From Pirellulales bacterium (lineage in GTDB: Bacteria; Planctomycetota; Planctomycetia; Pirellulales; Thermoguttaceae), in NCBI GenBank assembly GCA_016931995.1, contig JAFGDS010000102.1:1-64000 (forward strand): 64,000 nt of DNA. Reading direction: 5' to 3'. Of the stretch, positions 5,525 through 28,251 are shown piece after piece; within the stretch, counting starts at the first letter, position 1; each line of letters starts with the position of its first letter. Both the position numbers and the translations under genes were made by a program. The notes under the pieces are model-generated. The model was not told where the DNA came from. It worked only from the letters and a program-made list of their open reading frames with translations, and did not search any database.

Positions 5525-5627
5525 TCGGGAGGCCCGGGGGGTGAATTGACCTTGCGTTGGCCCGGCGTTCTTCCTAGCATCCCGCCCACCTTTCCCTACT
5601 CCCGATGGTCTTGCCCCGGCAGCCTCC

Positions 5628-8600
5628 GTGAAACGACTGCTGCAAGTGGTGTGTCGCGCCCAACCCTCGCCGTTGCGCGGGGTCGTCCTGGGCGTCGTGG
5701 CCGTCGTGTTGGCCGCGGTTGCGTCGCGTGCGCAAGAGCCCCAAAGCGCGCAGTACCGGGTCTATCCGCTTCGCTACCAGACGGCCGCCGACGTGGAAAA
5801 GGCGCTCGGTCCGATGTTGGCCCAGCTTGCCCCGGGCACGAACACGCACCTCGTGGCCGACGTGCAAAACAACCAATTGCTTTTGCGCGGCCCGCGGGCG
5901 GCGCAGGAGGTTGCCCGGCAATTGATCGACTCGATCGACCGTCCCGCGCCGGTTCAACCGATCCCCCCGCCCCCGCAACCGCTCGGTCAGCCGGTCGTTC
6001 GCGCCTACGGATGTCCGCCGGAGCGATTGGCCGAGGCGGCCCAGAGGCTCGAGACGACATACGGCGCCGCGGCGGGCGTCCGCGTGGCGGCCAACCAGCA
6101 AACCGCACAACTATTCGTCCTGGCTCCGCCGGAGGTACACGAGGCGATCTCGCGCCAGTTGGCCGCCCTGGGTTTGCACGGCGCGGCCGCGGCGACTGGC
6201 GGCGAGCCGGCCGTGCGGGAGGAGTTCGTGGGCATGGCGCACGGCCGGGTCGAGCAGGTCGAGACGGCCCTGCGAGAACTGTTGGGCGCGCGGCTCAAGC
6301 CCATCCAGCCCCGCCCCGCGGATGGTCCGGATTATCGCTTCGAGAATACCGCCGGGACCCACGCCGACCTGACCGTGGACCGGCGGCGCAACGGCGTCAT
6401 GCTGTTGGGCTCGGGCAAGCTCGTGGGGCAGCTGGCGCACCTGATCCGGTATCTCGATCGCCCCCGCGACGCGGCGGACCGGGCCGTTCGCGTTCTCCCC
6501 ATCCGTCATGCCGATCCGGCGAAGGTCCGCGAGGCAGTCGAGAAATACCGCAGCCAACGGCCCGGCGAATTGCCGCCGAACGAAAGCCAGTCGCTTTACC
6601 GCCTGCCGCGGCGGCCGGGCTCGCGCTATTCGCCCGAGGGTATCGACCTGGTCAACTACGAGATGGTCACGGCCATGCTCCAGCCGGCGCCCCAGCCGGG
6701 CCGCGAGGGCGCCGAGCCGCCGGGCCAGACGCCGCCGGACCAACGGGAGCAGCCGCCGGAGACGCTGCGCGAGCTGGCGCCGGACGTGGACGTGCAGATC
6801 CTGCCCGACCTGGACGTGATTATTCTGCAAGGCCGCCGGCGCGACGTCCAGGAGATGGCTCGGATCATCGCCGAGATCGAGCGGCTCAGCGTGGAGACGC
6901 AGCCGGCGATCGAAATCGTTGGGCTGGCGCACGTGGCCAGCGACTCGATGGCCACGGTGATCGCGCAGGTGCGCGACGACCTGATCGGCGGGCGGCAAGG
7001 CCGGGTGAGCGTCACGTCGCTAATCAAGCCCAACGCTTTGTTGCTCATCGGTTGGGGCGAATCGGTCGGGGCCATCCGGGAGTTGATCCAATCGCTCGAT
7101 CAGCCGGTCGCGCCCGACACGCAGCTTCGCGTCTTCCGGCTCACCAACGCGCCGGCGGGCCAGGCCGTGGCCACGGTGCAGCAGTTCTTCGCCGACCGCG
7201 GCGGACTGGGCCCCAAAGTGCTCGCGGTGGCCGACGTCCGCACCAATTCGCTCGTGGTCCAGGCGTCGCCCCGCGACATGGCCGAGGTGGCCACGCTGGT
7301 GGAGAGTCTCGACGCCGGCAGCAGCGGCGCGGTTTCGCGGGCGCGGATCTTCAAGCTGAACAACTCGCTGGCGGCCGATCTGGGCGGCACGCTCCAGGCG
7401 GCCATCGCCGCGGCCCGGGGCGGCCCTGGCGCGGCGGGACGCTCGGCCGTGCTCGAGCTTCTGGCCGTCGAACCCAACGGCCAACGGGTGCTGCGCTCCG
7501 GCATTCTGGCCGACGTGCAGGTGGTGCCGGACGTGCGGACCAACAGCTTGATCGTCACGGCCCCGGCCGAGAGCATGGAGTTGATCGCCGCCCTGATCGA
7601 CCGGCTCGATGCGCCGGCGTCGGTCGCGCAGATCAAGGTCTTCCAGGTGGTCAACGCCGACGCCAACGCGATGATCCGGATGCTGCAATCGCTGCTGCCG
7701 GCGCAGTCGGTCGGCGCCGCGGCCCGCCCGCAACTGCCCACCGCCGAGGGTGAGACGTCGCTCGTGCCGGTGCGATTCTCCGTGGACGTCCGCACGAACA
7801 GCATCATTGCGACCGGCTCGAAGGGCGACCTGGCGATCATCGAGGCCTTGCTGTTGCGTCTGGACGGGAAGGACGTGGATCAGCGGGTGAACACGGTCTA
7901 CCGGCTCAAGAACGCGCCCGCGACGGACGTGGCCCGCGCCGTGAACGAGTTTTTGCGGAGCGAGCGCCAGGTGCAGCTTGCCGCGCCGGGCAGCGAGAGC
8001 CCCTTCCAGCAGATCGAGCGGGAAGTGGTCGTCGTGCCCGAGCCGGTCAGCAACGCCCTGATCCTCAGCGCGACGCCGCGATTCTTCAAGGACATCGAGG
8101 AGCTGGTCCAGAAGCTCGACGCGCAGCCGCCGCAGGTGATGATCCAGGTGCTCATCGCCGAGGTCGCGCTGGACAACACGGACGAATTTGGCGTCGAGCT
8201 CGGCCTGCAAGATTCGCTTCTGTTCGACCGCAGCCTGCTGTCGGCCATCGAGAAGGTGGTCAAAACGACCACGGAGAGCAGCGCCACCGGCATCGTGACC
8301 ACCACCGAGGAGACCATCGTCTCGGCCGAGCAGAACCCCGGATTCAACTTCCGCACCCAAGCGCTGGGCAACAGCGGCGCGGACAAGGCCATTGCGCAGG
8401 CGAACCTCGTCGGCGGGCAGGGCGTCACCACGTTCGGCGTGGGGCGGACGAACAGCGAGCTGGGCTTCGGCGGCATGGTCCTCTCGGCCGGCAGCGAAAG
8501 CGTCAGCGTGCTCATCCGCGCGCTGCAGGAATGCCGTCGGCTGGAGGTCTTGAGCCGGCCGCAGATCATGACGCTCGACAACCAGTCGGCTTTCATCCAG

Positions 8601-9653
8601 GTCGGCCAGCGCGTCCCGCGGATCGTCGGCACCACGATCAACGCCACGGGGCAAGTGAACAACATCCAGCTCGAGGACGTTGGGCTCATCCTGGGCGTCA
8701 CGCCGCGGATCAGCCCGGAGGGCATGGTCGTCATGGAGCTGGACGCGGAGAAATCGGAGCTCGGCTCCCAACTGGAAGGCGTGCCCGTGGCCATCTCCGA
8801 AGGCGCCGTCATCACTTCGCCCATCGTCAACGTGACCACGGCCCAAACCACCGTGAGCGCGTCCAGCGGCGAGACGATCGTGCTGGGTGGCCTGATCGTC
8901 AAAAGCAAGCGGACGATCAACCGCCGCGTGCCCTGGCTCGCCGACATCCCGCTGGTGGGAATGCTCTTCAAATACGACGCCCAGCAGAACCGCCGCGCCG
9001 AGTTGCTGATTATCTTGACGCCCTGGGTGATCCGCGGGCCGGAAGACGCCGAGCGGATCAAGCAGCGCGAGGCCGCGCGGATGAACTGGTGCCTGGCCGA
9101 CGTGAACTGCCTGCACGGCGACACGGGCCTGTACCAGATCGGCAACGACGCCTCATACGTCGGCGCGGGGCCCATGGTGATTTATCCCGACGCGCGGCAC
9201 GGCGGTCCGCGGACCGCGCCCCCGCCGGCCAGCCTGGAACCGTGGCCGGAGCCGATCCCGCCGGGTCCACGACTGGAGAACGTGCCGACCCCGGCGCCGT
9301 TGCCGGGGGATCTTCCGCCGATGCAGCAAGGGCCGACAACACAGACTCTTCCCCTGACGACGCCGCCTCCCGAGCGGCTCGTGCCGGCGGGCCGGCCGGT
9401 CCAGACCGTGCAGTCGTCCCCCGCGGGTCCGGCGCCGTATGCGCCCTGGCCTGGACAAGGCGTCGCCGCGGGGTCAACCGGTTACGGCGCCGCGGCGGGC
9501 GTGCAGTTCGCCGGGGGCGAGGCCGCGCCGACATACGACCCGCGCCGCGGCGAGCCCATCAATCCGGCCGTCTACGCGCAGCCGCAATACCCCGGCGCGC
9601 AACCGCCGCCACCGCAGCTATCGCCGTTGTACCCGTACGGACAACCGCAATGA
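5628..9653 (+). CDS. Giant secretin (type II/type IV-pilus PilQ/GspD-like outer-membrane channel), 1341 aa, with a Pro-rich C-terminal extension
   Basis: GTG start. Signal peptide (VVLGVVAVVLAAVASRAQEP). About eight secretin-N-type repeats carrying the DVRTNSL(V/I) motif. C-terminal secretin domain (VLSRPQIMTLDNQSAFIQVGQRVP .. VPWLADIPLVGMLFKYDAQQNRRAELLIILTPWVI). 180-aa P/Q/A-rich tail. Confidence 0.9.
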   Translation: MKRLLQVVCRAQPSPLRGVVLGVVAVVLAAVASRAQEPQSAQYRVYPLRYQTAADVEKALGPMLAQLAPGTNTHLVADVQNNQLLLRGPRAAQEVARQLIDSIDRPAPVQPIPPPPQPLGQPVVRAYGCPPERLAEAAQRLETTYGAAAGVRVAANQQTAQLFVLAPPEVHEAISRQLAALGLHGAAAATGGEPAVREEFVGMAHGRVEQVETALRELLGARLKPIQPRPADGPDYRFENTAGTHADLTVDRRRNGVMLLGSGKLVGQLAHLIRYLDRPRDAADRAVRVLPIRHADPAKVREAVEKYRSQRPGELPPNESQSLYRLPRRPGSRYSPEGIDLVNYEMVTAMLQPAPQPGREGAEPPGQTPPDQREQPPETLRELAPDVDVQILPDLDVIILQGRRRDVQEMARIIAEIERLSVETQPAIEIVGLAHVASDSMATVIAQVRDDLIGGRQGRVSVTSLIKPNALLLIGWGESVGAIRELIQSLDQPVAPDTQLRVFRLTNAPAGQAVATVQQFFADRGGLGPKVLAVADVRTNSLVVQASPRDMAEVATLVESLDAGSSGAVSRARIFKLNNSLAADLGGTLQAAIAAARGGPGAAGRSAVLELLAVEPNGQRVLRSGILADVQVVPDVRTNSLIVTAPAESMELIAALIDRLDAPASVAQIKVFQVVNADANAMIRMLQSLLPAQSVGAAARPQLPTAEGETSLVPVRFSVDVRTNSIIATGSKGDLAIIEALLLRLDGKDVDQRVNTVYRLKNAPATDVARAVNEFLRSERQVQLAAPGSESPFQQIEREVVVVPEPVSNALILSATPRFFKDIEELVQKLDAQPPQVMIQVLIAEVALDNTDEFGVELGLQDSLLFDRSLLSAIEKVVKTTTESSATGIVTTTEETIVSAEQNPGFNFRTQALGNSGADKAIAQANLVGGQGVTTFGVGRTNSELGFGGMVLSAGSESVSVLIRALQECRRLEVLSRPQIMTLDNQSAFIQVGQRVPRIVGTTINATGQVNNIQLEDVGLILGVTPRISPEGMVVMELDAEKSELGSQLEGVPVAISEGAVITSPIVNVTTAQTTVSASSGETIVLGGLIVKSKRTINRRVPWLADIPLVGMLFKYDAQQNRRAELLIILTPWVIRGPEDAERIKQREAARMNWCLADVNCLHGDTGLYQIGNDASYVGAGPMVIYPDARHGGPRTAPPPASLEPWPEPIPPGPRLENVPTPAPLPGDLPPMQQGPTTQTLPLTTPPPERLVPAGRPVQTVQSSPAGPAPYAPWPGQGVAAGSTGYGAAAGVQFAGGEAAPTYDPRRGEPINPAVYAQPQYPGAQPPPPQLSPLYPYGQPQ

Positions 9654-10702
9654 CATTGTCCACGAAACACGGGGGCATGGCTTCCGCGCGGGCAACGCTG
9701 CTCGCCCTCGTCGCGATGGCGCCTCTAGCCGGGTGCTCCGAGTTGGACCTCCGGCCGGACTTCACCCTGCCGGGCTTCGAGGAAAAGCCCGCCGTGCCCA
9801 ACCGGATGGTGGCCATGTGGACTGACGCGATCCGCCACAAGTCGGGCGAGGCGACGATGCGCGGCTTCGGCGGCCGGATCATGTTCTACGCCAAAGACAA
9901 GAAGAAGCCCGTCAAGGTGGAAGGCACGCTGAGCGTCTACGTCTTCGACGACCGCGGCGCCGACCCGAAACACGCCGTGCCCGAAAAGAAATACGTCTTT
10001 CTGCCCGAACAGCTTCCGCTGCACTACAGCGAGTCGGACCTGGGCCACTCGTACAGCTTCTTCCTGCCCTGGGACGAGGTGGGCGGACCCCAGCGGCAGT
10101 TGACGCTCATCGTGCGTTTCGAGGCGGCCACGGGGCAGGTCGTGATGTCGGACGCCTCGCGCCGGACGTTGCCGGGCCGGACGGACGTCGTCGCGCCGCC
10201 GAGCGGACCGCTGGCGCCGACCGCGGCGGCCGTCGACGGGGTGCGGCCGGTCGGGCACGTGGCGCTGGCCCCGCCCGCGGCCCATGCCGTCAGCGGTGTG
10301 ATGCTCACCGACACGATCGACGTGCCGCCGAGCTTCGTCCAGGGCGGAATTGTCGCGCCCCAGCCGGTCCCAAACTGGTCGGTTCAGAACGCCACCGAGA
10401 CCTGGGTGCCCGCGGGCGCTGCCGCGCCGGCTAGCGCCGTTCCAGCCGGAGCGGCCGCGGCATGGGTTGGCGGGAATCCGGCGGCGCCACCGACAAGTTA
10501 TTCCGCACCGTCGCGACTCCGGGCTCCAAGAGTAACACGAGGGCGGCCAACTCCCGGTCGCGCGACGATGCTACCTGCCCCGACAGCGTGGCCGTCTGCC
10601 CCTGGAACGTCACCCGGACCGGCTCCCGCAGCGTCAGACCCGGCGTGGCCGCAAGACGCTTCGCAAGCCTCGCCGCCGTGGCCGAGTCCGATGGCCGGGT
10701 GA
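9650..10702 (+). CDS. Lipoprotein of unknown function, translationally coupled to the secretin (candidate pilotin or accessory protein)
   Basis: ATG overlaps the secretin TGA (ATGA). Lipobox LAGC in MTLSTKHGGMASARATLLALVAMAPLAGCSE. Well-composed N-terminal about 200 aa; the C-terminal third is P/A-rich and overlaps the convergent BON gene. Confidence 0.55.
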   Translation: MTLSTKHGGMASARATLLALVAMAPLAGCSELDLRPDFTLPGFEEKPAVPNRMVAMWTDAIRHKSGEATMRGFGGRIMFYAKDKKKPVKVEGTLSVYVFDDRGADPKHAVPEKKYVFLPEQLPLHYSESDLGHSYSFFLPWDEVGGPQRQLTLIVRFEAATGQVVMSDASRRTLPGRTDVVAPPSGPLAPTAAAVDGVRPVGHVALAPPAAHAVSGVMLTDTIDVPPSFVQGGIVAPQPVPNWSVQNATETWVPAGAAAPASAVPAGAAAAWVGGNPAAPPTSYSAPSRLRAPRVTRGRPTPGRATMLPAPTAWPSAPGTSPGPAPAASDPAWPQDASQASPPWPSPMAG

Positions 10703-11072
10703 CATCGAAACCGACCACCAGCCGCGGGTCGTAGATCGTGTCCGGCCGGCGCGTCGTGTTTGCTTCCTGCTCGCGTTCGATGTCGAGCCCCGCCGTGGCC
10801 GAACGGACCTGACCCGTCGAGCTGCCCTGCTGCAAGCCCACGAAGCCGGCGGTGTCGCGGGTGTCCGTGCCGATGAAGTCGTTGCGGCGTCGGTTGCCGC
10901 GGATGAATCGTTCGTTGCCGCGGACGGCGCCGACCTCGGCGTTGTCGCCCGCCCCGGCGCGCCGATTCATCGGCGAGCCTTGACGTCGCGTGCCGCCGAA
11001 CAATTGCCCGCGAGCGTCATCAACGAGCGCCCAAAACAACAGGATCATCAAACACGCGGCAGACGCTTTCAT
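10431..11072 (-). CDS. Secreted protein with C-terminal BON domain
   Basis: Internal Met MKASAACLMILLFWALV (signal peptide) with AGGAG RBS. C-terminus VRVTFQGQTATLSGQVASSRDRELAALVLLLEPGVATVRNNLSV fits the BON pattern. Confidence 0.6.
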   Translation of the reverse strand: MKASAACLMILLFWALVDDARGQLFGGTRRQGSPMNRRAGAGDNAEVGAVRGNERFIRGNRRRNDFIGTDTRDTAGFVGLQQGSSTGQVRSATAGLDIEREQEANTTRRPDTIYDPRLVVGFDVTRPSDSATAARLAKRLAATPGLTLREPVRVTFQGQTATLSGQVASSRDRELAALVLLLEPGVATVRNNLSVAPPDSRQPMPRPLRLERR

Positions 11073-11320
11073 GTTCGCGACTCCTGGCGGGCGGGAGGTG
11101 GGCGGGCGGGCTCTCGGTGAATTGTAGCACGTTCCGCCGATCACGCCAAACCGAGCGTCGGGCGGGCCTCGGCCGGCCCTTCAGAGCGATTCCACCGCGG
11201 CCCCAACCCCCGCGCGTGCCACCCACGGCCACTCAAAGACTCCCGACCGTTTCTGCCCACCGTTTCTGCCCCCTAAACACTACACGCGCAATCAGGCAGA
11301 CGCTCAATTTGGGCATCGCA

Positions 11321-18681: not shown

Positions 18682-19209
18682 GGACCTGCTTTGATTAGGG
18701 GTGCTGCCGCGAGGCACGCCAGCCGTGGCACGCGTGTTGCATGGGGTCGTCTGGTGCTAGCATAGCGCGGCTTTGCGCGGAATTCTCCGCAATTCGCCGT
18801 CATTTTTCCCGCAAGCGCGCGCCGCTACTTGACAAAGGGCCGCGAAGTCGGACAATGAGGCCCATGCCGAGCGAATCGAGGCGCGTCGAGAGCGCTGGGC
18901 AAGGGCATTGCCGTTCGGGCAATGCTCAAGTCGCGTCGCGGCGAGTTGTCCGACCTCGTGGAGATGCTGCCCGTCGCCGCGGGCGCGATGCTTGACACGG
19001 TTGTTGGGCGCGAGTGGTCTGGCTGCGGTCAGGCTGGAGTGGACCCACGGAAATGGAATGAATCCGGGGGGGCGGCGACCGTAGGATCGATAGTCGGCGG
19101 CGGAGGTCGCGGCCGGGAAGGCCCCCCCCCTCGGTATTTTGGTGGTCCTGATGCGCCGGCAACGGCGCGGTGCTTCCTCGTTCTCGCCGGTCAGGCTTCC
19201 TCTTCGACG

Positions 19210-20265
19210 ATGTCCATCTGCCTGATTGGTCTGGGCGCGAATCTGGGCGATCGTGTCCGAACGCTTCAGGCGGCCGTCGACTTGCTTGCGCATGAAGGGA
19301 GCGTGCGTCTTTTGGCCAAGAGTCGGTGGCACGAGACGCTGCCCGTCGGCGGCCCGCCCGGTCAGCCGCCCTATCTCAACGGCGCGGCGACCCTCGAGAC
19401 GACGTTGACGCCCGAGACGCTTCTGGAACGCCTTCAGACAATCGAGCGGGCGTTGGGCCGCGCGCGGGGGCGGCGATGGGGCCCCCGAACCATCGACCTC
19501 GACTTGTTGCTCCACGGCGAAGAGGTCCTCGACTCGCCGCGTTTGACGGTGCCGCACCCACGGATGGCGTGGCGGCGATTCGTGCTCGCGCCGGCGGCGG
19601 AGGTGGCCGCGTCGATGGTCCACCCGACGACCAGTTGGACCATCGGCCGGTTGCTTGCGCATTTGGACGCGGGGCCAGACTACGTCGCGATTGCCGGCGG
19701 GATCGGGGCGGGCAAGACCTCGCTGGCCCGGCGGCTCGCGCGGGCGTGCCGGGCGCGACTCGTCGCCGAGCGGCTCGACCTGCGCGGCCTGGGCGCCTTC
19801 TACGCCGATCCGTCTAGCCACGCTTGGGCGACGGAGTTACAATTCCTGAGCCAGCGTGCCGGGTGGCTGGCGGGCGACGATGCGGCCTGGTCGGACGGGG
19901 CGTTGGCCGTGAGCGATTTTTGGCTGGATCAGTCGCGCGCGTTTGCGCGGGTGTGGCTGCGGCCGGAGCAGTTCGAGGCGTTCGAGGCCCGTTTCGAGCA
20001 GGTCCGAGGCGGTTCGGTCCGGCCGAAGCTCACGATCCTGTTGGACGTGTCGGCGGAGCGTCTTTTGGCGCGGATCCGCCGTCGCGGCCGGCCGCAAGAA
20101 CGCCCGTTGGACGAAGCCCGCGTGGGCCAGATTGCCCAGGGTATTGCCGAGGCGACCCGCGGGCCCGACGTGGGCCCCGTTCTTCGTCTGACCGACCCAA
20201 CGCCCCGCGAGGCGCTCCGCGAAGCCACGGCCGCCGTCGCGGCGATGACCGCGCGGTCGCGTTGA
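19210..20265 (+). CDS. folK: HPPK (FolK) fused to a C-terminal deoxynucleoside-kinase-like P-loop domain
   Basis: FolK part: ICLIGLGANLGDR .. ETLPVGG..QPPYLN .. RWGPRTIDLDLLLHG .. PHPRM. C-terminal part: AIAGGIGAGKTS (P-loop), AFYADPSSHAWATELQFLSQR, ERLLARIRRRGRPQE (dNK-family signatures). Start taken at MSICLIG; the upstream part of the ORF is rejected. Confidence 0.8.
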   Translation: MSICLIGLGANLGDRVRTLQAAVDLLAHEGSVRLLAKSRWHETLPVGGPPGQPPYLNGAATLETTLTPETLLERLQTIERALGRARGRRWGPRTIDLDLLLHGEEVLDSPRLTVPHPRMAWRRFVLAPAAEVAASMVHPTTSWTIGRLLAHLDAGPDYVAIAGGIGAGKTSLARRLARACRARLVAERLDLRGLGAFYADPSSHAWATELQFLSQRAGWLAGDDAAWSDGALAVSDFWLDQSRAFARVWLRPEQFEAFEARFEQVRGGSVRPKLTILLDVSAERLLARIRRRGRPQERPLDEARVGQIAQGIAEATRGPDVGPVLRLTDPTPREALREATAAVAAMTARSR

Positions 20266-20432: not shown

Positions 20433-21293
20433 ATGATGGATCCCCCACGAGTCATCACGACGCTTGACGACCTCCGCGCGGCGGTGGGACCGCTGCGGCG
20501 CGCGGGTTGGCGGGTGGGCGTCGTGCCGACGATGGGGGCGCTGCACGAGGGCCACTTGAGCCTGGTCCACGCGTCGCGGGCCGAGTGCGATTTCACCGTC
20601 GCGTGGATCTTCGTCAATCCAAGTCAGTTTGGTCCCGGCGAGGATTATGCCCGGTATCCCCGCGACCTCCAAGCGGATCTCGACAAGCTGGCCGCCTGCG
20701 GCGTGGAGCTGGTCTTCGCGCCGGCGGAGGGCGAGGTGTACGGGCCGGAACATGACACCTGGGTTGAACCGGGCGCGGTCGCCGGGCCGCTGGAGGGCGA
20801 GCACCGGCCGGGGCATTTCCGCGGCGTGGCGACGATCGTGCTCAAGCTGTTCAACATGATCGCGCCGGACGCGGCGTATTTCGGGCAAAAGGACTACCAG
20901 CAGGCCCTGGTGATCCGGCGGATGACCGCCGATCTCGACCTGCCCATCGAAATCCGTGTCTGCCCGATCGTCCGCGAGTCCGACGGCCTGGCCATGAGCT
21001 CGCGCAACGCCTACCTGAGCCCCGCGGCGCGACGACGGGCGACCGTGCTGTGGAAGAGCTTGTGCCTGGCGAAGGAGCTTGTGGCCGGCGGCGAGCGCGG
21101 GGCCGAGACCATCGCCCGGCGGATGCGCGAGGTGATCCTGTCGGCCGAGGACGCGCGGATCGACTACGTCGCCCTGGTCGATCCGGAAACGCTTCAGCAG
21201 GTCGAGCGGGTGGACCGCCCGACGCTGGCGGCCCTGGCCGTGCGGATCGAGAACACGCGGTTGATCGACAACTGCATATTGACGGTGGAATGA
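20433..21293 (+). CDS. panC: Pantoate--beta-alanine ligase
   Basis: PTMGALHEGHLSL, FGQKDYQQ, MSSRN motifs. Start at MMDPPR; the upstream part of the ORF is rejected. Confidence 0.9.
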   Translation: MMDPPRVITTLDDLRAAVGPLRRAGWRVGVVPTMGALHEGHLSLVHASRAECDFTVAWIFVNPSQFGPGEDYARYPRDLQADLDKLAACGVELVFAPAEGEVYGPEHDTWVEPGAVAGPLEGEHRPGHFRGVATIVLKLFNMIAPDAAYFGQKDYQQALVIRRMTADLDLPIEIRVCPIVRESDGLAMSSRNAYLSPAARRRATVLWKSLCLAKELVAGGERGAETIARRMREVILSAEDARIDYVALVDPETLQQVERVDRPTLAALAVRIENTRLIDNCILTVE

Positions 21294-22576
21294 CTTGGAG
21301 CCGCGCCGTGTGTCGAACGCTTTTTCACATCCCCAACGAGATCGCCGGCGTCGGCGTGTTCGGCGTCGGGTGGTTGTTGGGGCTTTGGGTGATTGTGGGC
21401 ATCGTCATACTCGCGTGGGTGGGACGAAAGGAAGGCTTGGGGCGGGAGTGGTTCGGCTACCTCCCACTGCTGGCGATCGTTGCCGCGGCCATCGTCTGGG
21501 TGCTGCCCGCCGTCTGCGATAAGGAGGGGCTCCCCATCCGCGGCTACGGCACGATGATGCTCGTGGCCGTGGCGTCGGGCACGGGCTTGTTCGTCTGGCG
21601 GATGGCGCGCGTCGGCGTGGAACCCGATCTGACGCTCTCGATGGTCTTTTGGATGTTCCTGGGGGGCATCCTCGGCGCCCGGGCGTTCTACGTGATCGAA
21701 TACTGGTCCGATTTCCACAAGCCCACGCTGGGGGCGACGCTGGCCGCCGTGGCCAACATCACGCTGGGCGGGTTGGTCGTCTACGGGTCGCTCCTCGGCG
21801 GGCTGGCGGCCATGTTCATTTTCCTCCGCGCGCGCCGGCTGCCGGCTCTGGTCGTCTGCGATCGGCTCGCGCCGTGCCTGGTGTTGGGGCTGGCCATCGG
21901 CCGGGTCGGATGCCTGATGAACGGGTGCTGCTTCGGCGGACCGTGCGACCACGCCTGGGCTCTGCGCTTTCCGCCCGACAGCCAGGTGTACGAGAGCCAG
22001 GCAAGCGGCGGCCTCTTCCACGGCATGAAGCTGGGCGAAGACGCCGGCGAGCCGACCACCGTCATCGAGATCGAGCCCGACGGACCGGCCGCCCGCGCCG
22101 GCTTGCGTCCGGGCGACCGGATCGTCGGCGTCGAGGGACGCCCGGTGGAATCGGCGCGGGATCTCCGTTCGGCTCTGCTTTTGGCGTATTTTGAGGAACG
22201 GCCGTTGGCCCTGCGCACCGCCGGCGGCCGGGACGCGCAAATGGCGGCCGTGCCGATCGCGCCGCGGAGCCTCCCCGTGACGCCGACGCAGCCGCTGGCG
22301 ACGATCAACGCCCTGGCGATCATGCTGTTTCTGCTGGCGTGCGAGCCCTTTTGCCGCCGCGACGGCCAACTGTTCGCCATCTTGCTGACGCTTTACCCCA
22401 TCACGCGGTTCATCCTCGAGATCATCCGCACGGACGAGCACGCGGTGTTCGACACGAGCCTGAGCATCTCGCAGAACGTAAGCATCTTGGTGCTCGTGGG
22501 CATCGTCGTCTTCTGGATCTTCGTCTTTCGCCAGCCGGCGCGACCGTTTCGAGATCCTTCGCTGCGCTCAGGATGA
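21290..22576 (+). CDS. lgt: Prolipoprotein diacylglyceryl transferase with an inserted PDZ-like domain
   Basis: ATGA overlap with the panC stop. GRVGCLMNGCC and YPITRFILEIIRTDE Lgt-type motifs, multiple TM helices. Insert GLRPGDRIVGVEGRPVESARDL resembles a PDZ core. 3' end runs into a family A repeat. Confidence 0.8.
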   Translation: MTWSRAVCRTLFHIPNEIAGVGVFGVGWLLGLWVIVGIVILAWVGRKEGLGREWFGYLPLLAIVAAAIVWVLPAVCDKEGLPIRGYGTMMLVAVASGTGLFVWRMARVGVEPDLTLSMVFWMFLGGILGARAFYVIEYWSDFHKPTLGATLAAVANITLGGLVVYGSLLGGLAAMFIFLRARRLPALVVCDRLAPCLVLGLAIGRVGCLMNGCCFGGPCDHAWALRFPPDSQVYESQASGGLFHGMKLGEDAGEPTTVIEIEPDGPAARAGLRPGDRIVGVEGRPVESARDLRSALLLAYFEERPLALRTAGGRDAQMAAVPIAPRSLPVTPTQPLATINALAIMLFLLACEPFCRRDGQLFAILLTLYPITRFILEIIRTDEHAVFDTSLSISQNVSILVLVGIVVFWIFVFRQPARPFRDPSLRSG

Positions 22577-23117: not shown

Positions 23118-24011
23118 TTAGGGGCGTCCGCTTTCCGCCTCGGCGTAGCCGGCGGGCAGGGCGGCGATGATGCGGATTTGGCTGGGCTTGGCGGGTGGAG
23201 GAAGGACGGTCACGCGCGAGCGACCGTCGACCAGCGCGAGGCTCGATGGAAGCCGGCTCGCGCCGGGCCGCTGCTCGTCGCGGGTGACGGGATCGGTTTC
23301 GGGCATGGGGGCCAGCGGCGCGGGAGTCGGGGCGGGCGTCGGCCCGCCTTCGGGGATGGTCTCGCCCTCGTCCGGCTCGCCCTGCCGCGGCGCCTCTCCA
23401 GCAGGCGGAAGCACGCGCCGGCACGCTGCCAGCGCGTTGGCGGCCGCCTGGCGCACCCGCGCCGATCGCTCCGTGTAGCACCCATTTTCGTCCTGCTCGT
23501 AGGCCACGGCGTGAAGCTTGGTCATTACCTTTGCGCTGCAGCAGCCCTTGCCGCCACAGTACTCGCAGGGATTGCCGGCGGCCTCGCAGAAGGCAATCGC
23601 GGCCTCGAAGCGGACCTCTTCGGAACAGTCGTCCAACTTGGCCAGCAGAGCCTCCGCGACGCCTTCGTAGCAGCCGCATCCAACCGTGGCCAAATACTTG
23701 ATCGCCTTGATTTTCTGGGGCGCCAGGTCTTCTTCGGTCTTGATCTTGGCGGCCAGCTTGACGGCGGCGCTGTCCGACTGGAGATTCTCCGGGTCGGCGA
23801 TTCGCCGGATGGGCGTCTCGCGTTCCAACCCCGGCCGGTTTCCGCGCCGATTCGTCGTGACGTCGCGGATCTTCTGGATCCCCCGCGGAATGCCGAGGAA
23901 GTGCCAGATCGTCTGCGACGCGGCGGCTTCCTCGACCGCGCGGCCCGTCGAGGCCGCGCCCAGAAGGCACGCCAACGCAAGACACGATCCCATGCAATGA
24001 CAACGACTCAT
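23118..24011 (-). CDS. Secreted Cys-rich HEAT-like repeat protein, stand-alone paralog of the N-terminal domain of the downstream TonB-dependent receptor
   Basis: Signal peptide MSRCHCMGSCLALACLLGAASTGRA. About 190 aa align at about 60% identity with residues 30-220 of ORF 25174-28251 (WxxLGIPxGIQKxRDVTTNRRGN .. QKIKAIKYL .. CYEGV .. CGGxGCC .. SARVR..A.NAL.AC). HEAT-like xEVRxEAAI repeats. Confidence 0.6.
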   Translation of the reverse strand: MSRCHCMGSCLALACLLGAASTGRAVEEAAASQTIWHFLGIPRGIQKIRDVTTNRRGNRPGLERETPIRRIADPENLQSDSAAVKLAAKIKTEEDLAPQKIKAIKYLATVGCGCYEGVAEALLAKLDDCSEEVRFEAAIAFCEAAGNPCEYCGGKGCCSAKVMTKLHAVAYEQDENGCYTERSARVRQAAANALAACRRVLPPAGEAPRQGEPDEGETIPEGGPTPAPTPAPLAPMPETDPVTRDEQRPGASRLPSSLALVDGRSRVTVLPPPAKPSQIRIIAALPAGYAEAESGRP

Positions 24012-24093
24012 GACGCTTCTCCCTTGGATGGACGCGCCGCGTCAACGCTTGGCCCCGCGGGCGGCCGCGAGACCTTTCGTTCCGAGGCGACGA

Positions 24094-24734
24094 TTACTGG
24101 CCACACGCTTCCTGTCGGCGGTTCTCGTTCCCGCCCACCCGCTTGCCGCGGCGGCAGTCGGGACAGCAGATGGTCGTCGGAACCTCGCGATAGACGACCC
24201 GCGGGACGCACACGGTCACCGTGTACGGTTCCTGCGTGACGACGCGCCGCGGGACCTCGACGACTTTTTGATAGGGCTCGGGCCGCAACACGGTGTAGGG
24301 CACCTTCTTGATGATGCAGGTCGGCGCCATCTTGACGCAGCTTCCAGACGTCCCACGGCCGCCGCGGTCGTTGCCCGACGCGCGACCTTCGCACGCCTCG
24401 GGCTGCCAGACCGTGCACGGACAACACCGATACCGCGTTTCCTCGACGTAGCGAACCGCGTCCACGGTTTTTTGTCGATCACGTCCTTGAACACGGACCG
24501 GTAGAAAGTCCGCTGCTCCTCGTCGTAAACGATCTCCTTGCACGTCTTCATGACCGTGCAAACCTGGCCGCAACGGCAGGTCTTCCCGCAACACGGTTGC
24601 ACGGCGACCGAATCCGACGCCGCCTGGACGCCGGAGCCGCCCATCGTTTCGTCCTGAGCTCTGGCTGCCGGCGCGGGCGCGCCAGCCAGACAAGCCACTA
24701 GTGCTCCCAGCGCGAGTTTTGTTGTGAGGTCCAT
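24094..24734 (-). pseudogene. Cys-rich secreted small protein split across two frames at an A_AAA_AAC heptamer (frameshifted gene, sequencing indel, or programmed -1 frameshift)
   Basis: Frame A (GAGGAG RBS; MDLTTKLALGALVACLAGAPAPAARA signal; ..QPCCGKTCRCGQVCTVMKTCKEIVYDEEQRTFYRSVFKDVIDKK) reads into R/S-rich junk after the A6 run. The -1 frame continues as TVDAVRYVEETRYRCCPCTVWQPEACEG..KKVPYTVLRPEPYQKVVEVPRRVVTQEPYTVTVCVPRVVYREVPTTICCPDC, a coherent Cys-rich sequence. Confidence 0.45.
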
Positions 24735-25173
24735 GCAGCAAGTCTCCTCTTCGGGGGGTCTTGCGCTCAAGCCGCCCGCGGATGCCGCGACCGGGTGGAC
24801 GTTGCGGGGCGCGTGTGTCCCATTGGCTGGTGTCCGCCGCTAACGGGTGTTTGCATTAGCCCGAGCTTTCGGATTGTATCAGTCTACCTGATCGTCACTG
24901 TTTGACAACTTGACGCGGTTGGGTAACCGCGGCCGGGCGGATGGTAGGTGTTGCTCGCCGACAGACCTTGTCGAGATGCCGCATTTTGCGCGCCCCGCCC
25001 ATCCGGAGGCGACGGTGTCGCTCTGACGGTGGCGAAATTCGCATCGGGTCGCGGACGCCCGTTCCAATGGTCAACTCCCGCTCAAGGCGGAGCCTTTCCC
25101 GTCGAACACATGATAAGGTGCCGGTTTTTCGGGCTGGGGCGGTTGTCATTGATTTCCGGACGGGGGGGATAAC

Positions 25174-28100
25174 ATGAGGTTTGCCCTTTGCTCCTGCCGA
25201 ATCGCTCTTGCGGTCTGCGTTCTGGTTGCGGGGATGCCGCTCGGGGCGGCGGAGACGCCGTCGGCGCCGACTCTTTGGAACTATCTTGGCATCCCCCAGG
25301 GCATCCAAAAGGTCCGCGACGTGACGACGAACCGTCGCGGCAATCATCCGAATATCGAACGGCCGGATGCCCTGCGGAGGATCTCCGATCCGGCCAACCT
25401 GGCAATGGACCCGGACAAATACCCCGAGATCGTGACTGCCGCGAAGATCAAGAAGCAGGAGGACGAGGCGGAGCAGAAGATCAAGGCGATCAAGTACCTG
25501 GGCACGATCGGCTGCGCGGGCTGCTACGAGGGAGTCGACCAAGCGCTGCTGGAAGCGCTGGGCGATTGCACGGAGGCGGTCCGCCACGAAGCGGCGATTG
25601 TGTTGTGCCAGTCGGCCGGTTGCGTGTGTGATCGTTGCGGCGGGCGCGGATGCTGCACCGCGGCGGTGATGAAGAAGCTGCACGAACTCGCTTACGAGAC
25701 GGACGAAAGCTGCTGCCATAAGGAGCCGTCGGCCCGAGTGCGGGCGGCCGCCCGAAACGCCTTGCAGGCGTGCATGAGGGTCACGCCCGCGTCGGGGCCT
25801 CCGGGGATGACGCCGATCGAGGAAGGCGGGGAGCGGATCCCCAGCGCCGCGCCGACCGTGGCGCCAGGGCAAGGGCAATCGACGTCGTGGTCGCCATACG
25901 AGCCTCTTTCGGACAGCGACGAGAGACCCGGCTTCATGTTGGCCTCGGCCTCCGTTCCCGCTGATGACGACGCGGCGGCGCAGTCGCTGTCGGAGGTTTC
26001 CCACGGGTCGGACGACGCTCCGTTCGCGCCGTCCGCGATGAATCCGCGCGCCGGCGGGAGTCTCTTTCAGACGACGGCGTATCAACAGGGGCTCGGCGCG
26101 CAGCCGATCCTGCCGGGCGAGTTCGGGACCGGTCCGATGGACAACCCGCTTGTGACTTCCTGGGGAACCGCGGGCACGCCGACGTCTGGCGCCGACGACC
26201 TGTTTCGCAGCGGCCAACTCGTGTCTCTTCCCGGCGCCGGCAGGGTGGCGGCGCCCGAGGCAACGGGCCTAGGCTCCCCCGACCTGGCGGACGTGCTCCG
26301 ATCCGCGTCCAACGTGCAGAGCGTCGAGGTGCAGCGACGTTCGCCAGTCTCCCTGGACCCGAACCTGCGCGGCTTCAAGGCCGGGCAGGTTTACACGGTG
26401 GCGGACGGCGCCTACTGGACGCCCGCCCGACGCGACTTGGACACCATGCTCAGCAAAATTGACCCAGGCATGATCCAGGACGTCATGGTTATTTCCGGGC
26501 CCTACGGGTTGCGATACGGGCCGGGATTCGGCTTCATCGACGTCGTGCGCGCTCCGACGCCGCGTTACAAGCACGGGCACGAATCCCACCTCTTGAGCAC
26601 CGGCTCCGTCCGGACCAACGGCGGCCAGCTCTATGGACGTGAAACGCTCTTCGGCGGCAGCCAGAACTGGGGATACCGGATCAGTTACGGCCACCGCCGC
26701 GGCAACGACTACGAGGCGGGCAGCGGCTTGCGGATCCCCAGTAGCTACGAAAACCGCGACGTCTGGGGAGAGCTGAGCTACGATCTGAACCCCTATCAGC
26801 GGCTCGATTTCGCCTACCAGCGGCTCGACCAGACCGACGCCGAGTACGCGTGCCAAATGTTCGACATCCGCAGTTTGGTGACCAACGGGTTCCAGTTGCG
26901 GCTGGTCGACGAGGATCCCGCGGCCCCCTGGACCCGCTGGGCGACCGAGGCCTGGTACAACCGCACGCGATTCGGGGGCGACACGTCGCACAAACACAAC
27001 GCCAGCTTTCCGACTATCGAGCGGATCGAGTACGCCCTGGACGCCGAGGTTCCCGGCCCGCCGCACACGCTCAGCGGCGTGACGGACGGGTCGGTGGGCT
27101 CCAGCGGATTGCGCACGGCGATGACCTTTGGCGACGTCGAGGACCGGCACGCGACCTTGGGGACGGACTACCGCTACCTGTCGCAACACATATCGGAAGT
27201 CCTCAAGGTGGAGCCGGCCATTGGCGGCCAGACCTACATCCCCACGAGCCAGCCGCACTCCTGGCTCAGCGACGCGGGCATGTTTGCCGAGTATTTCGTG
27301 CCCGCCACGCCCGACGGGGACGTTTCGCTCGGCGCACGCGTCGATTTCATCGGCTCGACGGCCAGGGCGAGCGACCTGCGACCCAATACACAGGTGACGG
27401 GAGGTCTCGATCAGAACGAGATCCTTCCGGCCTTCTACTGGATGAACCGTTTGGCCCTTGATTCTTGCTGGACGTTCAAGGCGGGATTTGGCCACGCCCA
27501 ACGCCCGCCCACGTTGACCGAGCGCTACGCCGACGGCGTCTTCCTCGGCATCGCGCAGACCGGCTACACCCGCGTCATCGGCGATCCCGACCTCCGCGAC
27601 GAGCGGGATTGGCAGATCGACCTCGGCCTGGAAGCCAAGCACGACCGCTGGCGAGGCAGGGCCGACGTCTTCCATTCCTGGGTCGACCAATACATCACCT
27701 GGCAGGACGACACCGTCGTCAGCTTCGCCGACGCGAGGCTGCTGAGATTCGTTAACACCGATCTGGCCACGCTGGCGGGTTTCGAGCTGTCGGGCGAGTA
27801 CGATTGGTCGGACTACACCACGCTGTTCGGAACGATGCGGTACGTCGAAGGACGCGACCAGACGATCGACGCCCCGCTGCCGGCCATCCCGCCGCTCGAT
27901 TCGCGCGTGGGCGTGCGCCTGCACGATCCGGAAGGCGGCCGGCGCTGGGGCCTGGAACTCGGTACCCGGATCGTCAACACCCAGAACCGGCTGGGCACCG
28001 TCCTCTTGCTCGGCTCACAGAAGACCACCATCGAAGAGCGGACCGGCGGCTTCGCCGTCTGGCACCTCCGCGGCTACTACAACCACACGAAGAACCTGAG

Positions 28101-28251
28101 GTTCGTGGCCGGCATCGACAACCTCTTCGACCGCGCGTACCAGGAGCACCTGGACCTGCGGCTCTTGGGACCAACGGGCTATCCTCACGACCCGACCCGC
28201 GTCCTCTCGCCCGGCTTCGCCCCGTACTTTGCCACCGAGTGGACGTTCTAG
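25174..28251 (+). CDS. TonB-dependent-receptor-like outer-membrane beta-barrel with a novel N-terminal Cys-rich HEAT-like extension
   Basis: Signal peptide MRFALCSCRIALAVCVLVAGMPLGAAE. N-terminal about 200-aa Cys-rich domain, then a low-complexity linker. Plug-like segment LRGFKAGQVYTVADGAYW..IQDVMVISGPYGLRYGPGFGFIDVV. C-terminal barrel ending GIDNLFDRAYQEH...YFATEWTF (terminal aromatic residue). Confidence 0.8.
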   Translation: MRFALCSCRIALAVCVLVAGMPLGAAETPSAPTLWNYLGIPQGIQKVRDVTTNRRGNHPNIERPDALRRISDPANLAMDPDKYPEIVTAAKIKKQEDEAEQKIKAIKYLGTIGCAGCYEGVDQALLEALGDCTEAVRHEAAIVLCQSAGCVCDRCGGRGCCTAAVMKKLHELAYETDESCCHKEPSARVRAAARNALQACMRVTPASGPPGMTPIEEGGERIPSAAPTVAPGQGQSTSWSPYEPLSDSDERPGFMLASASVPADDDAAAQSLSEVSHGSDDAPFAPSAMNPRAGGSLFQTTAYQQGLGAQPILPGEFGTGPMDNPLVTSWGTAGTPTSGADDLFRSGQLVSLPGAGRVAAPEATGLGSPDLADVLRSASNVQSVEVQRRSPVSLDPNLRGFKAGQVYTVADGAYWTPARRDLDTMLSKIDPGMIQDVMVISGPYGLRYGPGFGFIDVVRAPTPRYKHGHESHLLSTGSVRTNGGQLYGRETLFGGSQNWGYRISYGHRRGNDYEAGSGLRIPSSYENRDVWGELSYDLNPYQRLDFAYQRLDQTDAEYACQMFDIRSLVTNGFQLRLVDEDPAAPWTRWATEAWYNRTRFGGDTSHKHNASFPTIERIEYALDAEVPGPPHTLSGVTDGSVGSSGLRTAMTFGDVEDRHATLGTDYRYLSQHISEVLKVEPAIGGQTYIPTSQPHSWLSDAGMFAEYFVPATPDGDVSLGARVDFIGSTARASDLRPNTQVTGGLDQNEILPAFYWMNRLALDSCWTFKAGFGHAQRPPTLTERYADGVFLGIAQTGYTRVIGDPDLRDERDWQIDLGLEAKHDRWRGRADVFHSWVDQYITWQDDTVVSFADARLLRFVNTDLATLAGFELSGEYDWSDYTTLFGTMRYVEGRDQTIDAPLPAIPPLDSRVGVRLHDPEGGRRWGLELGTRIVNTQNRLGTVLLLGSQKTTIEERTGGFAVWHLRGYYNHTKNLRFVAGIDNLFDRAYQEHLDLRLLGPTGYPHDPTRVLSPGFAPYFATEWTF

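Follow-up and report, generated by a model that had tools for sequence, protein, structure and literature searches.

Why should a TonB-dependent receptor carry, between its signal peptide and its plug, a Cys-rich helical domain that is encoded a second time, as a free-standing exported protein, in the same locus? The question is raised by positions 23118–28251 of a 64,000-nucleotide stretch of DNA (the window; contig JAFGDS010000102.1 of GenBank assembly GCA_016931995.1) from a Pirellulales bacterium of the phylum Planctomycetota, in which a small Cys-rich gene of the YTV type separates the two genes concerned. A preliminary description, made from the sequence alone, had seen in this locus a metal or metallophore capture system in which the free protein would work with the receptor in the manner of a hemophore. 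The observation as a whole has stood, and all of the peptide strings that it quoted are present in the 25174–28251(+) translation; the hemophore model has not fared so well. We find that the receptor is genuine, that its extra domain (the module) belongs to an unannotated family, so far named only 'hypothetical protein' and restricted to contigs labelled Planctomycetota apart from one probable mis-bin, and that the module may, as a tentative reading, serve as a periplasmic docking or anchoring unit.

The receptor and the location of its extension

The 1025-residue product is a genuine TonB-dependent receptor, as had been proposed. It matches the Pfam families Plug (PF07715, residues 367–451; 36.9 bits against a cut-off of 23.9) and TonB_dep_Rec_b-barrel (PF00593, residues 493–984; 111.7 bits against 27, E 1.1e-31), it is identical to a protein with the NCBI product name 'TonB-dependent receptor' (P0201, at locus L001), and its C-terminal residue is aromatic (...ATEWTF), as for the assembly signal of outer-membrane proteins (OMPs). 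In an AlphaFold model (mc579d3ba0637; input, the 53-sequence alignment A3; mean predicted local distance difference test score, pLDDT, 77.8), residues 355–1025 form a plug and 22 long strands at a pLDDT of about 90, the strands and helices of the plug (355–459) being modelled at about 80–90, so that the 22-strand barrel expected of such a receptor was recovered. Residues 65–205 are helical (pLDDT 77–92), and the 143 residues from 209 to 351, all at a pLDDT below 35, are disordered. The extension is not an STN domain, a point on which the preliminary description was right: no Pfam match to STN (PF07660) was found in the receptor at E ≤ 1.

FecA-type STN domains and SusC-type extensions are periplasmic and, to our knowledge, the segment N-terminal to the plug, be it TonB box, STN or another extension, is periplasmic in every solved TonB-dependent receptor. 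Because segments before the plug lie on that side in characterized receptors, the fused module should, by analogy, hang in the periplasm. No canonical TonB box is evident upstream of the plug. In the alignment, most receptors of the clade, with or without the module, share the motif G.IRLV.G.F....YQP..P.QP about 100 residues before the plug, and a degenerate copy of it is found in the window receptor at about 26053–26115. A tail motif that bears a vague likeness to this one, VTLRIV (IRII in the paralogue encoded in the window), is found in short stand-alone module proteins. The receptor motif and the tail motifs could be TonB-box-like strands.

Foldseek ranked the copper importer OprC first (E 5e-42, target-normalized TM-score 0.85, 21 % identity), followed by PhuR, ChuA and ZnuD, and OprC was also the best sequence match for plug and barrel (profile E 1e-43). 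Matches to NCBIfam were all below threshold, namely to the hemoglobin/transferrin/lactoferrin type (150.6 bits against 323.75), the copper type TIGR01778 of OprC/NosA (131 against 472.45) and the hemin type (124.6 against 316.85). The CxxxM-HxM copper ligands of OprC are C143, M147, H323 and M325 (PMC8610252). These align to A418, L422, F600 and G602 of the receptor, and in the clade alignment F600 is nearly invariant and G602 invariant. An OprC-type copper receptor was rejected, since the copper-binding residues are replaced here and absent throughout the clade.

The Cys-rich module and its stand-alone paralogue

Residues 27–205 of the receptor and 28–203 of the paralogue are 54 % identical over 227 aligned residues (E 3e-66) and 62 % identical over the gap-free module columns, so that the 'about 60 %' quoted at the outset was a fair figure. 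The module of the paralogue occupies nucleotides 23403–23930 and matches the module hidden Markov model (HMM) at E 8e-84; the protein is identical to 'hypothetical protein JW809_13680' of a Pirellulales bacterium in NCBI (P0003). At the start of both receptor and paralogue the sequence reads as a Sec-type signal peptide, with a basic residue followed first by hydrophobic and then by small residues; this agrees with the export claimed for the paralogue. Because that Sec signal peptide is its only export signal, the paralogue should be periplasmic and not in the medium.

Alignments of family members (A1, A2) show a conserved leader of about 55 residues, TLW.FLGIPQG...NR.GN.P.LE...ADPANL, followed by HEAT-type repeats (QKIKAIKYL; ALLAALDDCTE.VRYEAA; EPSARVR.AA..AL). 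Eight cysteines are invariant and one more is nearly so; they are set in CxC, DDC, a CxxC...CC loop, GC and a terminal AC. The AlphaFold model of the module is all-helical (pLDDT 84), and among PDB entries its profile matches designed armadillo and alphaRep proteins only (6e-11). Tandem helix-turn-helix repeats stacked as a solenoid, the mark of ARM/HEAT proteins, are thus present, and the words 'Cys-rich' and 'HEAT-like' had been well chosen. Profile searches of Pfam and NCBIfam gave no family above threshold, the Pfam HEAT matches lying below it, in keeping with the suggestion that the module is of no described family.

Distribution and architectures of the module family

An exhaustive HMMER search of 1.84 billion representatives yielded 1833 clusters at E ≤ 1e-3 and 603 at E ≤ 1e-30, and a scan of species-representative genomes gave 192 relatives. 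The 150 proteins listed are 221–1061 residues long, and in nearly all of them the module stands at about residues 30–200. The N terminus is hydrophobic and signal-like in 174 of 200 members, and about 6–8 of the 200 have a clear lipobox (LSGC, LVGC, LALGC). Carriers include the cultured Stieleria tagensis, Novipirellula herctigrandis (two copies) and Anatilimnocola sp. NA78, and also a Bythopirellula metagenome-assembled genome (MAG). The contigs of the 78 retrieved loci are labelled Planctomycetota, mostly Pirellulales, with a single exception labelled Nealsonbacteria. This exception (L012, JABMRB010000793.1; a 47.8-kb contig labelled 'Candidatus Nealsonbacteria') encodes module, YTV-type, giant VWA and WD40 kinase genes, a set typical of Pirellulales, and is probably mis-binned.

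The C-terminal partners of the module were classed with purpose-built HMMs in 147 representatives and in 89 genes at genome loci. A Pro/Ala/Glu-rich low-complexity linker with a beta-rich C-terminal domain of about 65 residues was found in 71 of the representatives and 38 of the locus genes, a short tail only in 52 and 30, respectively, and a Cys patch, an 'APNMIGDFFG' motif and a domain of about 330 residues ending ...FNRRF in 23 and 17; a TonB receptor was the partner in 1 of 147 and 4 of 89. The commonest type, that with linker and small beta domain (about 45 %; e.g. L035:9905-11476, L019:9875-11335 and L059:9872-11224; P0023, P0026 and P0035), has a layout resembling that of a periplasm-spanning protein, and its small domain, which is unannotated, follows the pattern G.V..VD...V.F...G....VYH.Y...G......GD.V.

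The domain of about 330 residues (L006:9821-11974, L007:1325-3418, L022:9920-12271, L013 and L026; P0054, P0057, P0071, P0112 and P0158) has no match in Pfam, NCBIfam or the PDB, on which ground its assignment to a known family was rejected, and its profile has no similarity to the receptor barrel. It is rich in Gly, Thr, Phe and Asn and poor in Cys; its period-2 hydrophobicity is 0.80 and its helical signal 0.59, which is close to the receptor barrel (0.83 and 0.63) and unlike the helical module (0.71 and 0.89). We infer that it may form an outer-membrane barrel, possibly of an undescribed planctomycete OMP family.

Two kinds of neighbour recur beside module genes in other genomes. A protein of about 1600–1800 residues is encoded next to the module gene in 34 of 77 loci (e.g. 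L022:14821-20292(−), L029:4645-9525 and L081:10991-16186); it has a single transmembrane helix at its N terminus, matches VWA weakly and, to the eye, contains a caspase-like H...C pair. Ser/Thr kinases with WD40 or TPR repeats are frequent too. The window contains neither the giant VWA-match gene nor kinases with such repeats.

Fusion of the module to the receptor clade

With 563 proteins at E ≤ 1e-20 out of 8000 candidates scored, the planctomycete clade of the receptor is a large one. Among the 120 closest homologues of the receptor, 13 (994–1095 residues) have the complete module, and 6 (P0279, P0289, P0306, P0240, P0229 and P0278) have only a Cys-less copy of its last repeat, LRDVAYGK..G.FKEPSARVREAA..AL, which suggests decay of a formerly complete module; the remainder have different extensions, of 100–250 residues. 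The fusion was found at six loci, those of the window, L011, L033, L063 (= L083), L082 and L084. That it might be unique was rejected: the first homologue search returned proteins of 200–380 residues only and missed the window receptor itself, and the exhaustive and receptor-seeded searches found further fusions.

A stand-alone module gene directly adjoins the fused one, divergently or in tandem, in four of the six fusion loci. The fused and free copies of one genome are often nearest relatives, with identities of 91 % in L063 (copies at 417-965 and 1193-1741), 72 % in L082 and 62 % in the window, fused copies being about 50–60 % identical across genomes; they form no group of their own in a rough neighbour-joining tree. 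The pattern points to repeated local duplication or gene conversion combined with easy domain shuffling and, in L063, the sequences indicate what would be a recent duplication or gene conversion between neighbouring genes.

Linkage of receptor and module beyond the fusions is slight. Four non-fused receptors of the clade, all on long contigs, have no module, YTV-type, small-beta-domain or 330-residue-domain gene within 10 kb, and a general linkage between receptor clade and module gene was rejected on this ground. A receptor lies within 10 kb in 7 of 78 module loci. Four loci with a non-fused module gene (L050, L055, L060 and L037) have a receptor of the same clade within that distance, which may amount to a weak enrichment; L050, L055 and L060 share the order module gene, giant VWA gene, convergent TonB receptor, and a single MAG accounts for two of the four loci. 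The gene contexts of the fusion receptors are variable, and a conserved set of transport or TonB genes around them was rejected on that account.

The YTV-type gene and its frameshift

The gene between receptor and paralogue had been described as Cys-rich and secreted. An exported Cys-rich neighbour does exist, but its reading frame is split by a 1-nucleotide frameshift in a run of six A residues (A6). It shares its strand with the stand-alone module gene, which it precedes by 82 nucleotides, and is divergent to the receptor gene. The two halves occupy overlapping minus-strand frames (24216–24770 and 24094–24741). An ATG at 24734(−) opens the signal peptide MDLTTKLALGALVACLAGAPAPAARAQ, which is followed by the CCGKTCRCGQVC region; after GACAAAAAACCG (A6) the conserved sequence resumes in the other frame with VDAVRYVEETRYRCCPC, two PYTV motifs, CCPDC and a stop at 24094. 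A run of seven (A7) would restore ...DKKTVDAVRY..., the counterpart of which in L064 is EKKTVPTT. Because intact homologues (e.g. those of L004, L005, L006, L007, L012, L064 and L073) keep both halves as a single open reading frame (ORF) of about 170–215 residues, with no A-run at the junction, the window copy is, on this comparison, a 1-nucleotide deletion relative to the A7 state. An independent Logan assembly of these reads also has A6 at this point, and the frameshift is either a real mutation, inactivating or phase-variable, or a homopolymer error in two assemblies of the same reads. A programmed frameshift is not supported, the homologues being in frame and without an A-run at this point.

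A YTV-type gene adjoins the module gene in about 11 loci, divergently in most, and the module protein concerned may be the short form, the form with the 330-residue domain or a receptor fusion. Neither this gene nor its close homologues match PF07639 directly, even at E ≤ 10, although the profile of the family retrieves, at E about 1e-27 to 1e-29, proteins that score 41–52 bits on PF07639 (cut-off 21). Cell-wall preparations of planctomycetes have Cys-rich YTV proteins as their hallmark (PMC8567305, PMC12673574) and are dominated by them (PMC8567305).

Organization of the locus and its surroundings

The features of the locus are collected in Table 1. The whole of it, including the receptor gene, is reproduced base for base in the Logan assembly of run SRR13394437 (L001); the architecture is therefore not an artefact of one assembler, and an assembly chimera or spurious long ORF was rejected, the same fusion being present in other genomes.

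Table 1. Coordinates of the receptor locus within the window
Feature	Position	Strand	Basis
TonB-dependent receptor gene, 1025 aa, with N-terminal extension	25174–28251	+	ORF, Pfam, AlphaFold model, Foldseek
Receptor signal peptide, MRFALCSCRIALAVCVLVAGMPLGAA	25174–25251	+	Read from sequence
Cys-rich ARM/HEAT-like module, fused copy, residues 27–205	25252–25788	+	
Low-complexity, predicted-disordered linker, residues 206–366	25789–26271	+	Model pLDDT
Plug domain, residues 367–469	26272–26580	+	Pfam PF07715, model
22-strand beta-barrel, residues 470–1025, ending ...ATEWTF	26581–28248	+	Pfam PF00593, model, Foldseek
Stand-alone module protein, 297 aa: signal peptide, module, Pro/Ala-rich tail	23118–24011	−	Sequence comparison, module HMM
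Small exported Cys-rich YTV-type gene, about 213 aa as reconstructed, 1-nt frameshift	24094–24734	−	ORFs, homologues
A6 homopolymer, frame-shift point of the YTV-type gene	24468–24473	−	Sequence, homologues, Logan assembly
Divergent intergenic region, YTV-type gene/receptor	24735–25173		Rfam-searched

Rfam gave no match at E ≤ 1 in the divergent intergenic region upstream of the receptor, and a riboswitch or other known RNA 5' of the gene was rejected on that result. The neighbouring genes, named from their translations alone, are panC and lgt-like, trmB-like, methyltransferase and DUF1559-like genes, together with a Pfam-confirmed gene of the DMT_6 family; farther out, Pfam identifies a secretin, UvrA, kinases and aldo-keto reductases. 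These flanking genes are housekeeping genes or unrelated to the locus. Among the window genes scanned there was no TonB, ExbB or ExbD and no extracytoplasmic function (ECF) sigma gene, and no ECF sigma/anti-sigma pair stands beside the receptor. The secretin, at 5550–9653(+), is very long, its frame extending over 1367 codons from stop to stop, and has five Secretin_N repeats; a BON-domain protein is encoded at 10431–11180(−). By eye, 18922–20265(+) appears to encode HPPK (folK) fused to a deoxynucleoside-kinase-like domain, and the lgt-like ORF at about 21290–22576(+) to contain an inserted PDZ-like segment.

Possible function of the module

Our working hypothesis is that the locus encodes three envelope proteins, an outer-membrane TonB transporter of a planctomycete-specific clade, a soluble periplasmic copy of the solenoid and a small Cys-rich protein of the YTV type. 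The N terminus of the receptor, on the periplasmic side, would be a short solenoid, Cys-rich and ARM/HEAT-like, borne on about 160 residues of disordered tether. Like other ARM/HEAT solenoids, the module would be a protein-docking domain: whatever is fused to it, be it the receptor, another OMP-like domain, a lipid anchor or the small beta domain with its Pro-rich spacer, would be tied to one and the same partner in the periplasm or cell wall. Its conserved cysteines would stabilize the module or cross-link it to that partner, for which the YTV-type neighbour would be the most obvious candidate in this sub-clade, and the free paralogue would occupy or bridge the same partner. We prefer this reading, of a periplasmic docking or anchoring module with a YTV-type candidate partner and stabilizing or cross-linking cysteines, because the distribution of the module resembles that of envelope-anchoring domains (OmpA-like, SLH, LysM). 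We put its probability at about 0.4 only, because the partner is deduced from gene neighbourhood and the YTV-type neighbour is limited to one sub-clade and broken here.

Several observations weigh against this reading. Few module loci, about 11 of some 78, have a YTV-type neighbour, the copy in the window is frameshifted, hence dispensable or inactive here, and the YTV protein was chosen as partner by guesswork from the gene neighbourhood. In the family at large the module gene more often adjoins that of the weak-VWA membrane protein of about 1700 residues (34 of 77 loci), which is absent from the window; the 330-residue domain, having no Pfam or PDB match, is no more than a putative outer-membrane barrel; and the four non-fused receptors of the clade are without a module gene within 10 kb. 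A wider form of the hypothesis would make the module the docking unit of a planctomycete-specific tether, linking outer-membrane barrels, lipoproteins and Pro-rich periplasm-spanning proteins to a YTV layer or the wall, possibly through disulfides. The module is seen on receptor fusions, on lipobox members and in free forms, the barrel nature of the 330-residue partner being conjectural, and we consider such a tether doubtful, about half as probable as docking or anchoring in the narrower sense.

In the main rival reading, the module would bind the transported substrate, a thiophilic metal such as Cu or Zn or else a metal chelate, on its exit from the barrel, and the paralogue would shuttle this cargo across the periplasm. 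The CxC, CxxC and CC settings of the conserved cysteines would suit such a hand-off, the nearest characterized receptors (OprC, PhuR, ChuA and ZnuD) import metal or heme, the best sub-threshold NCBIfam models are those of copper and heme/hemoglobin receptors, and a soluble copy stands beside the fused one in four of the six fusion loci. However, more than 95 % of the module family has no receptor attached, only 7 of 78 loci have one within 10 kb, the copper-binding residues of OprC are absent throughout a clade of which some members keep only the Cys-less last repeat, and the window holds no metal-homeostasis or ATP-binding cassette (ABC) import genes. Cysteines exported by Sec into the oxidizing periplasm are, moreover, more often in disulfides, and on balance we think a hand-off unlikely. 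Less probable again is a signalling extension, in which the module, placed like STN between signal peptide and plug, would report receptor occupancy to a periplasmic or inner-membrane partner and the free copy would act as competitor or modulator. ARM/HEAT folds are protein-binding scaffolds and Ser/Thr kinase genes are frequent beside module genes in other genomes, both of which would fit, but the receptor has neither an adjacent ECF sigma/anti-sigma pair nor any STN similarity, and most modules are attached to something other than a receptor.

A module that always comes right after the signal peptide, whatever follows it, might also be a passive element, a disulfide-stabilized aid to the folding or assembly of exported envelope proteins, or a spacer, with no specific partner. 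The close relationship of many fused and free copies (91 % in L063, 72 % in L082) fits easy duplication or gene conversion and shuffling of such an element, but strong conservation of the leader of about 55 residues and of nine cysteines over 1800 clusters argues for a specific constraint, and many members are little more than the module, which must then act alone; we regard a passive role as improbable, much as we do signalling. Least credible of all is the model of the preliminary description, in which the module captures a ligand outside the cell and the paralogue, secreted in the manner of a hemophore, carries ligand to the receptor. That the same domain is fused and free, and encoded side by side, does recall a hemophore system, but the analogy fails because the region before the plug is periplasmic, as the established topology of TonB-dependent receptors has it, and because the paralogue is exported by Sec, with no signal other than its Sec signal peptide. 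The one secretin gene of the window, at 5550–9653, is not adjacent and nothing links it to the locus, and the family is for the most part receptor-free and unlinked to receptors, so that we hold this model to be very improbable indeed.

Comparison with known systems

The receptor itself is ordinary; what is new is the kind of periplasmic N-terminal extension that it carries, for which neither Pfam nor NCBIfam has a family. Little is yet understood of the planctomycete envelope, and a module found on OMPs, lipoproteins and free proteins, and beside a YTV-type gene, is a concrete candidate for connecting its layers. A phylum-wide survey detected none of the known outer-membrane tethers in Planctomycetes and suggested a novel system (bioRxiv 10.1101/2021.05.31.446380); a tether built on the module, if real, would fill this reported absence. 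Should the module handle metal instead, it would represent a new kind of receptor-attached periplasmic acceptor.

Resemblance to HasA-HasR goes no further than the general notion that a TonB-dependent receptor cooperates with a free protein: HasA is an extracellular substrate of a type I secretion system, has another fold and docks on the external face of its receptor, whereas the domain described here is Sec-exported and should lie on the periplasmic side. OprC of Pseudomonas aeruginosa (PDB 6FOK/6Z8Q) is like the receptor in plug and barrel but is without a HEAT-like extension. The small middle gene shares with the YTV cell-wall proteins (PF07639) its richness in Cys, its two PYTV motifs and its signal peptide, and differs from them in having no PF07639 match of its own and, in the window, in being frameshifted. 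The chlamydial OmcA/OmcB/MOMP complex offers a possible parallel from within the same superphylum, since its Cys-rich proteins, of the periplasm and of the outer membrane, are proposed to make up an envelope network held together by disulfides; no relationship in sequence was found, though none was searched for, and cross-linking in the present system is speculative.

The order signal peptide, extra periplasmic domain, linker, plug and 22-strand barrel is that of the FecA/FpvA-type STN transducers and of SusC-type receptors. In those proteins, however, the extra domain has an STN or carboxypeptidase-regulatory-like fold and not that of a Cys-rich ARM/HEAT solenoid, and the receptor described here has no adjacent sigma/anti-sigma genes and a module that also occurs free and on other C-terminal partners. 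OmpM (SLH and a porin barrel) and intimin/invasin (periplasmic LysM and a barrel) differ in that their periplasmic domains are of unrelated fold, in that the barrel of the window receptor is an active transporter and in that wall binding by the module is only putative. They nevertheless share with it a common logic, in which a linker connects a barrel in the outer membrane to a periplasmic domain at the N terminus, and in them too the domain is one that is used again in other proteins of the envelope.

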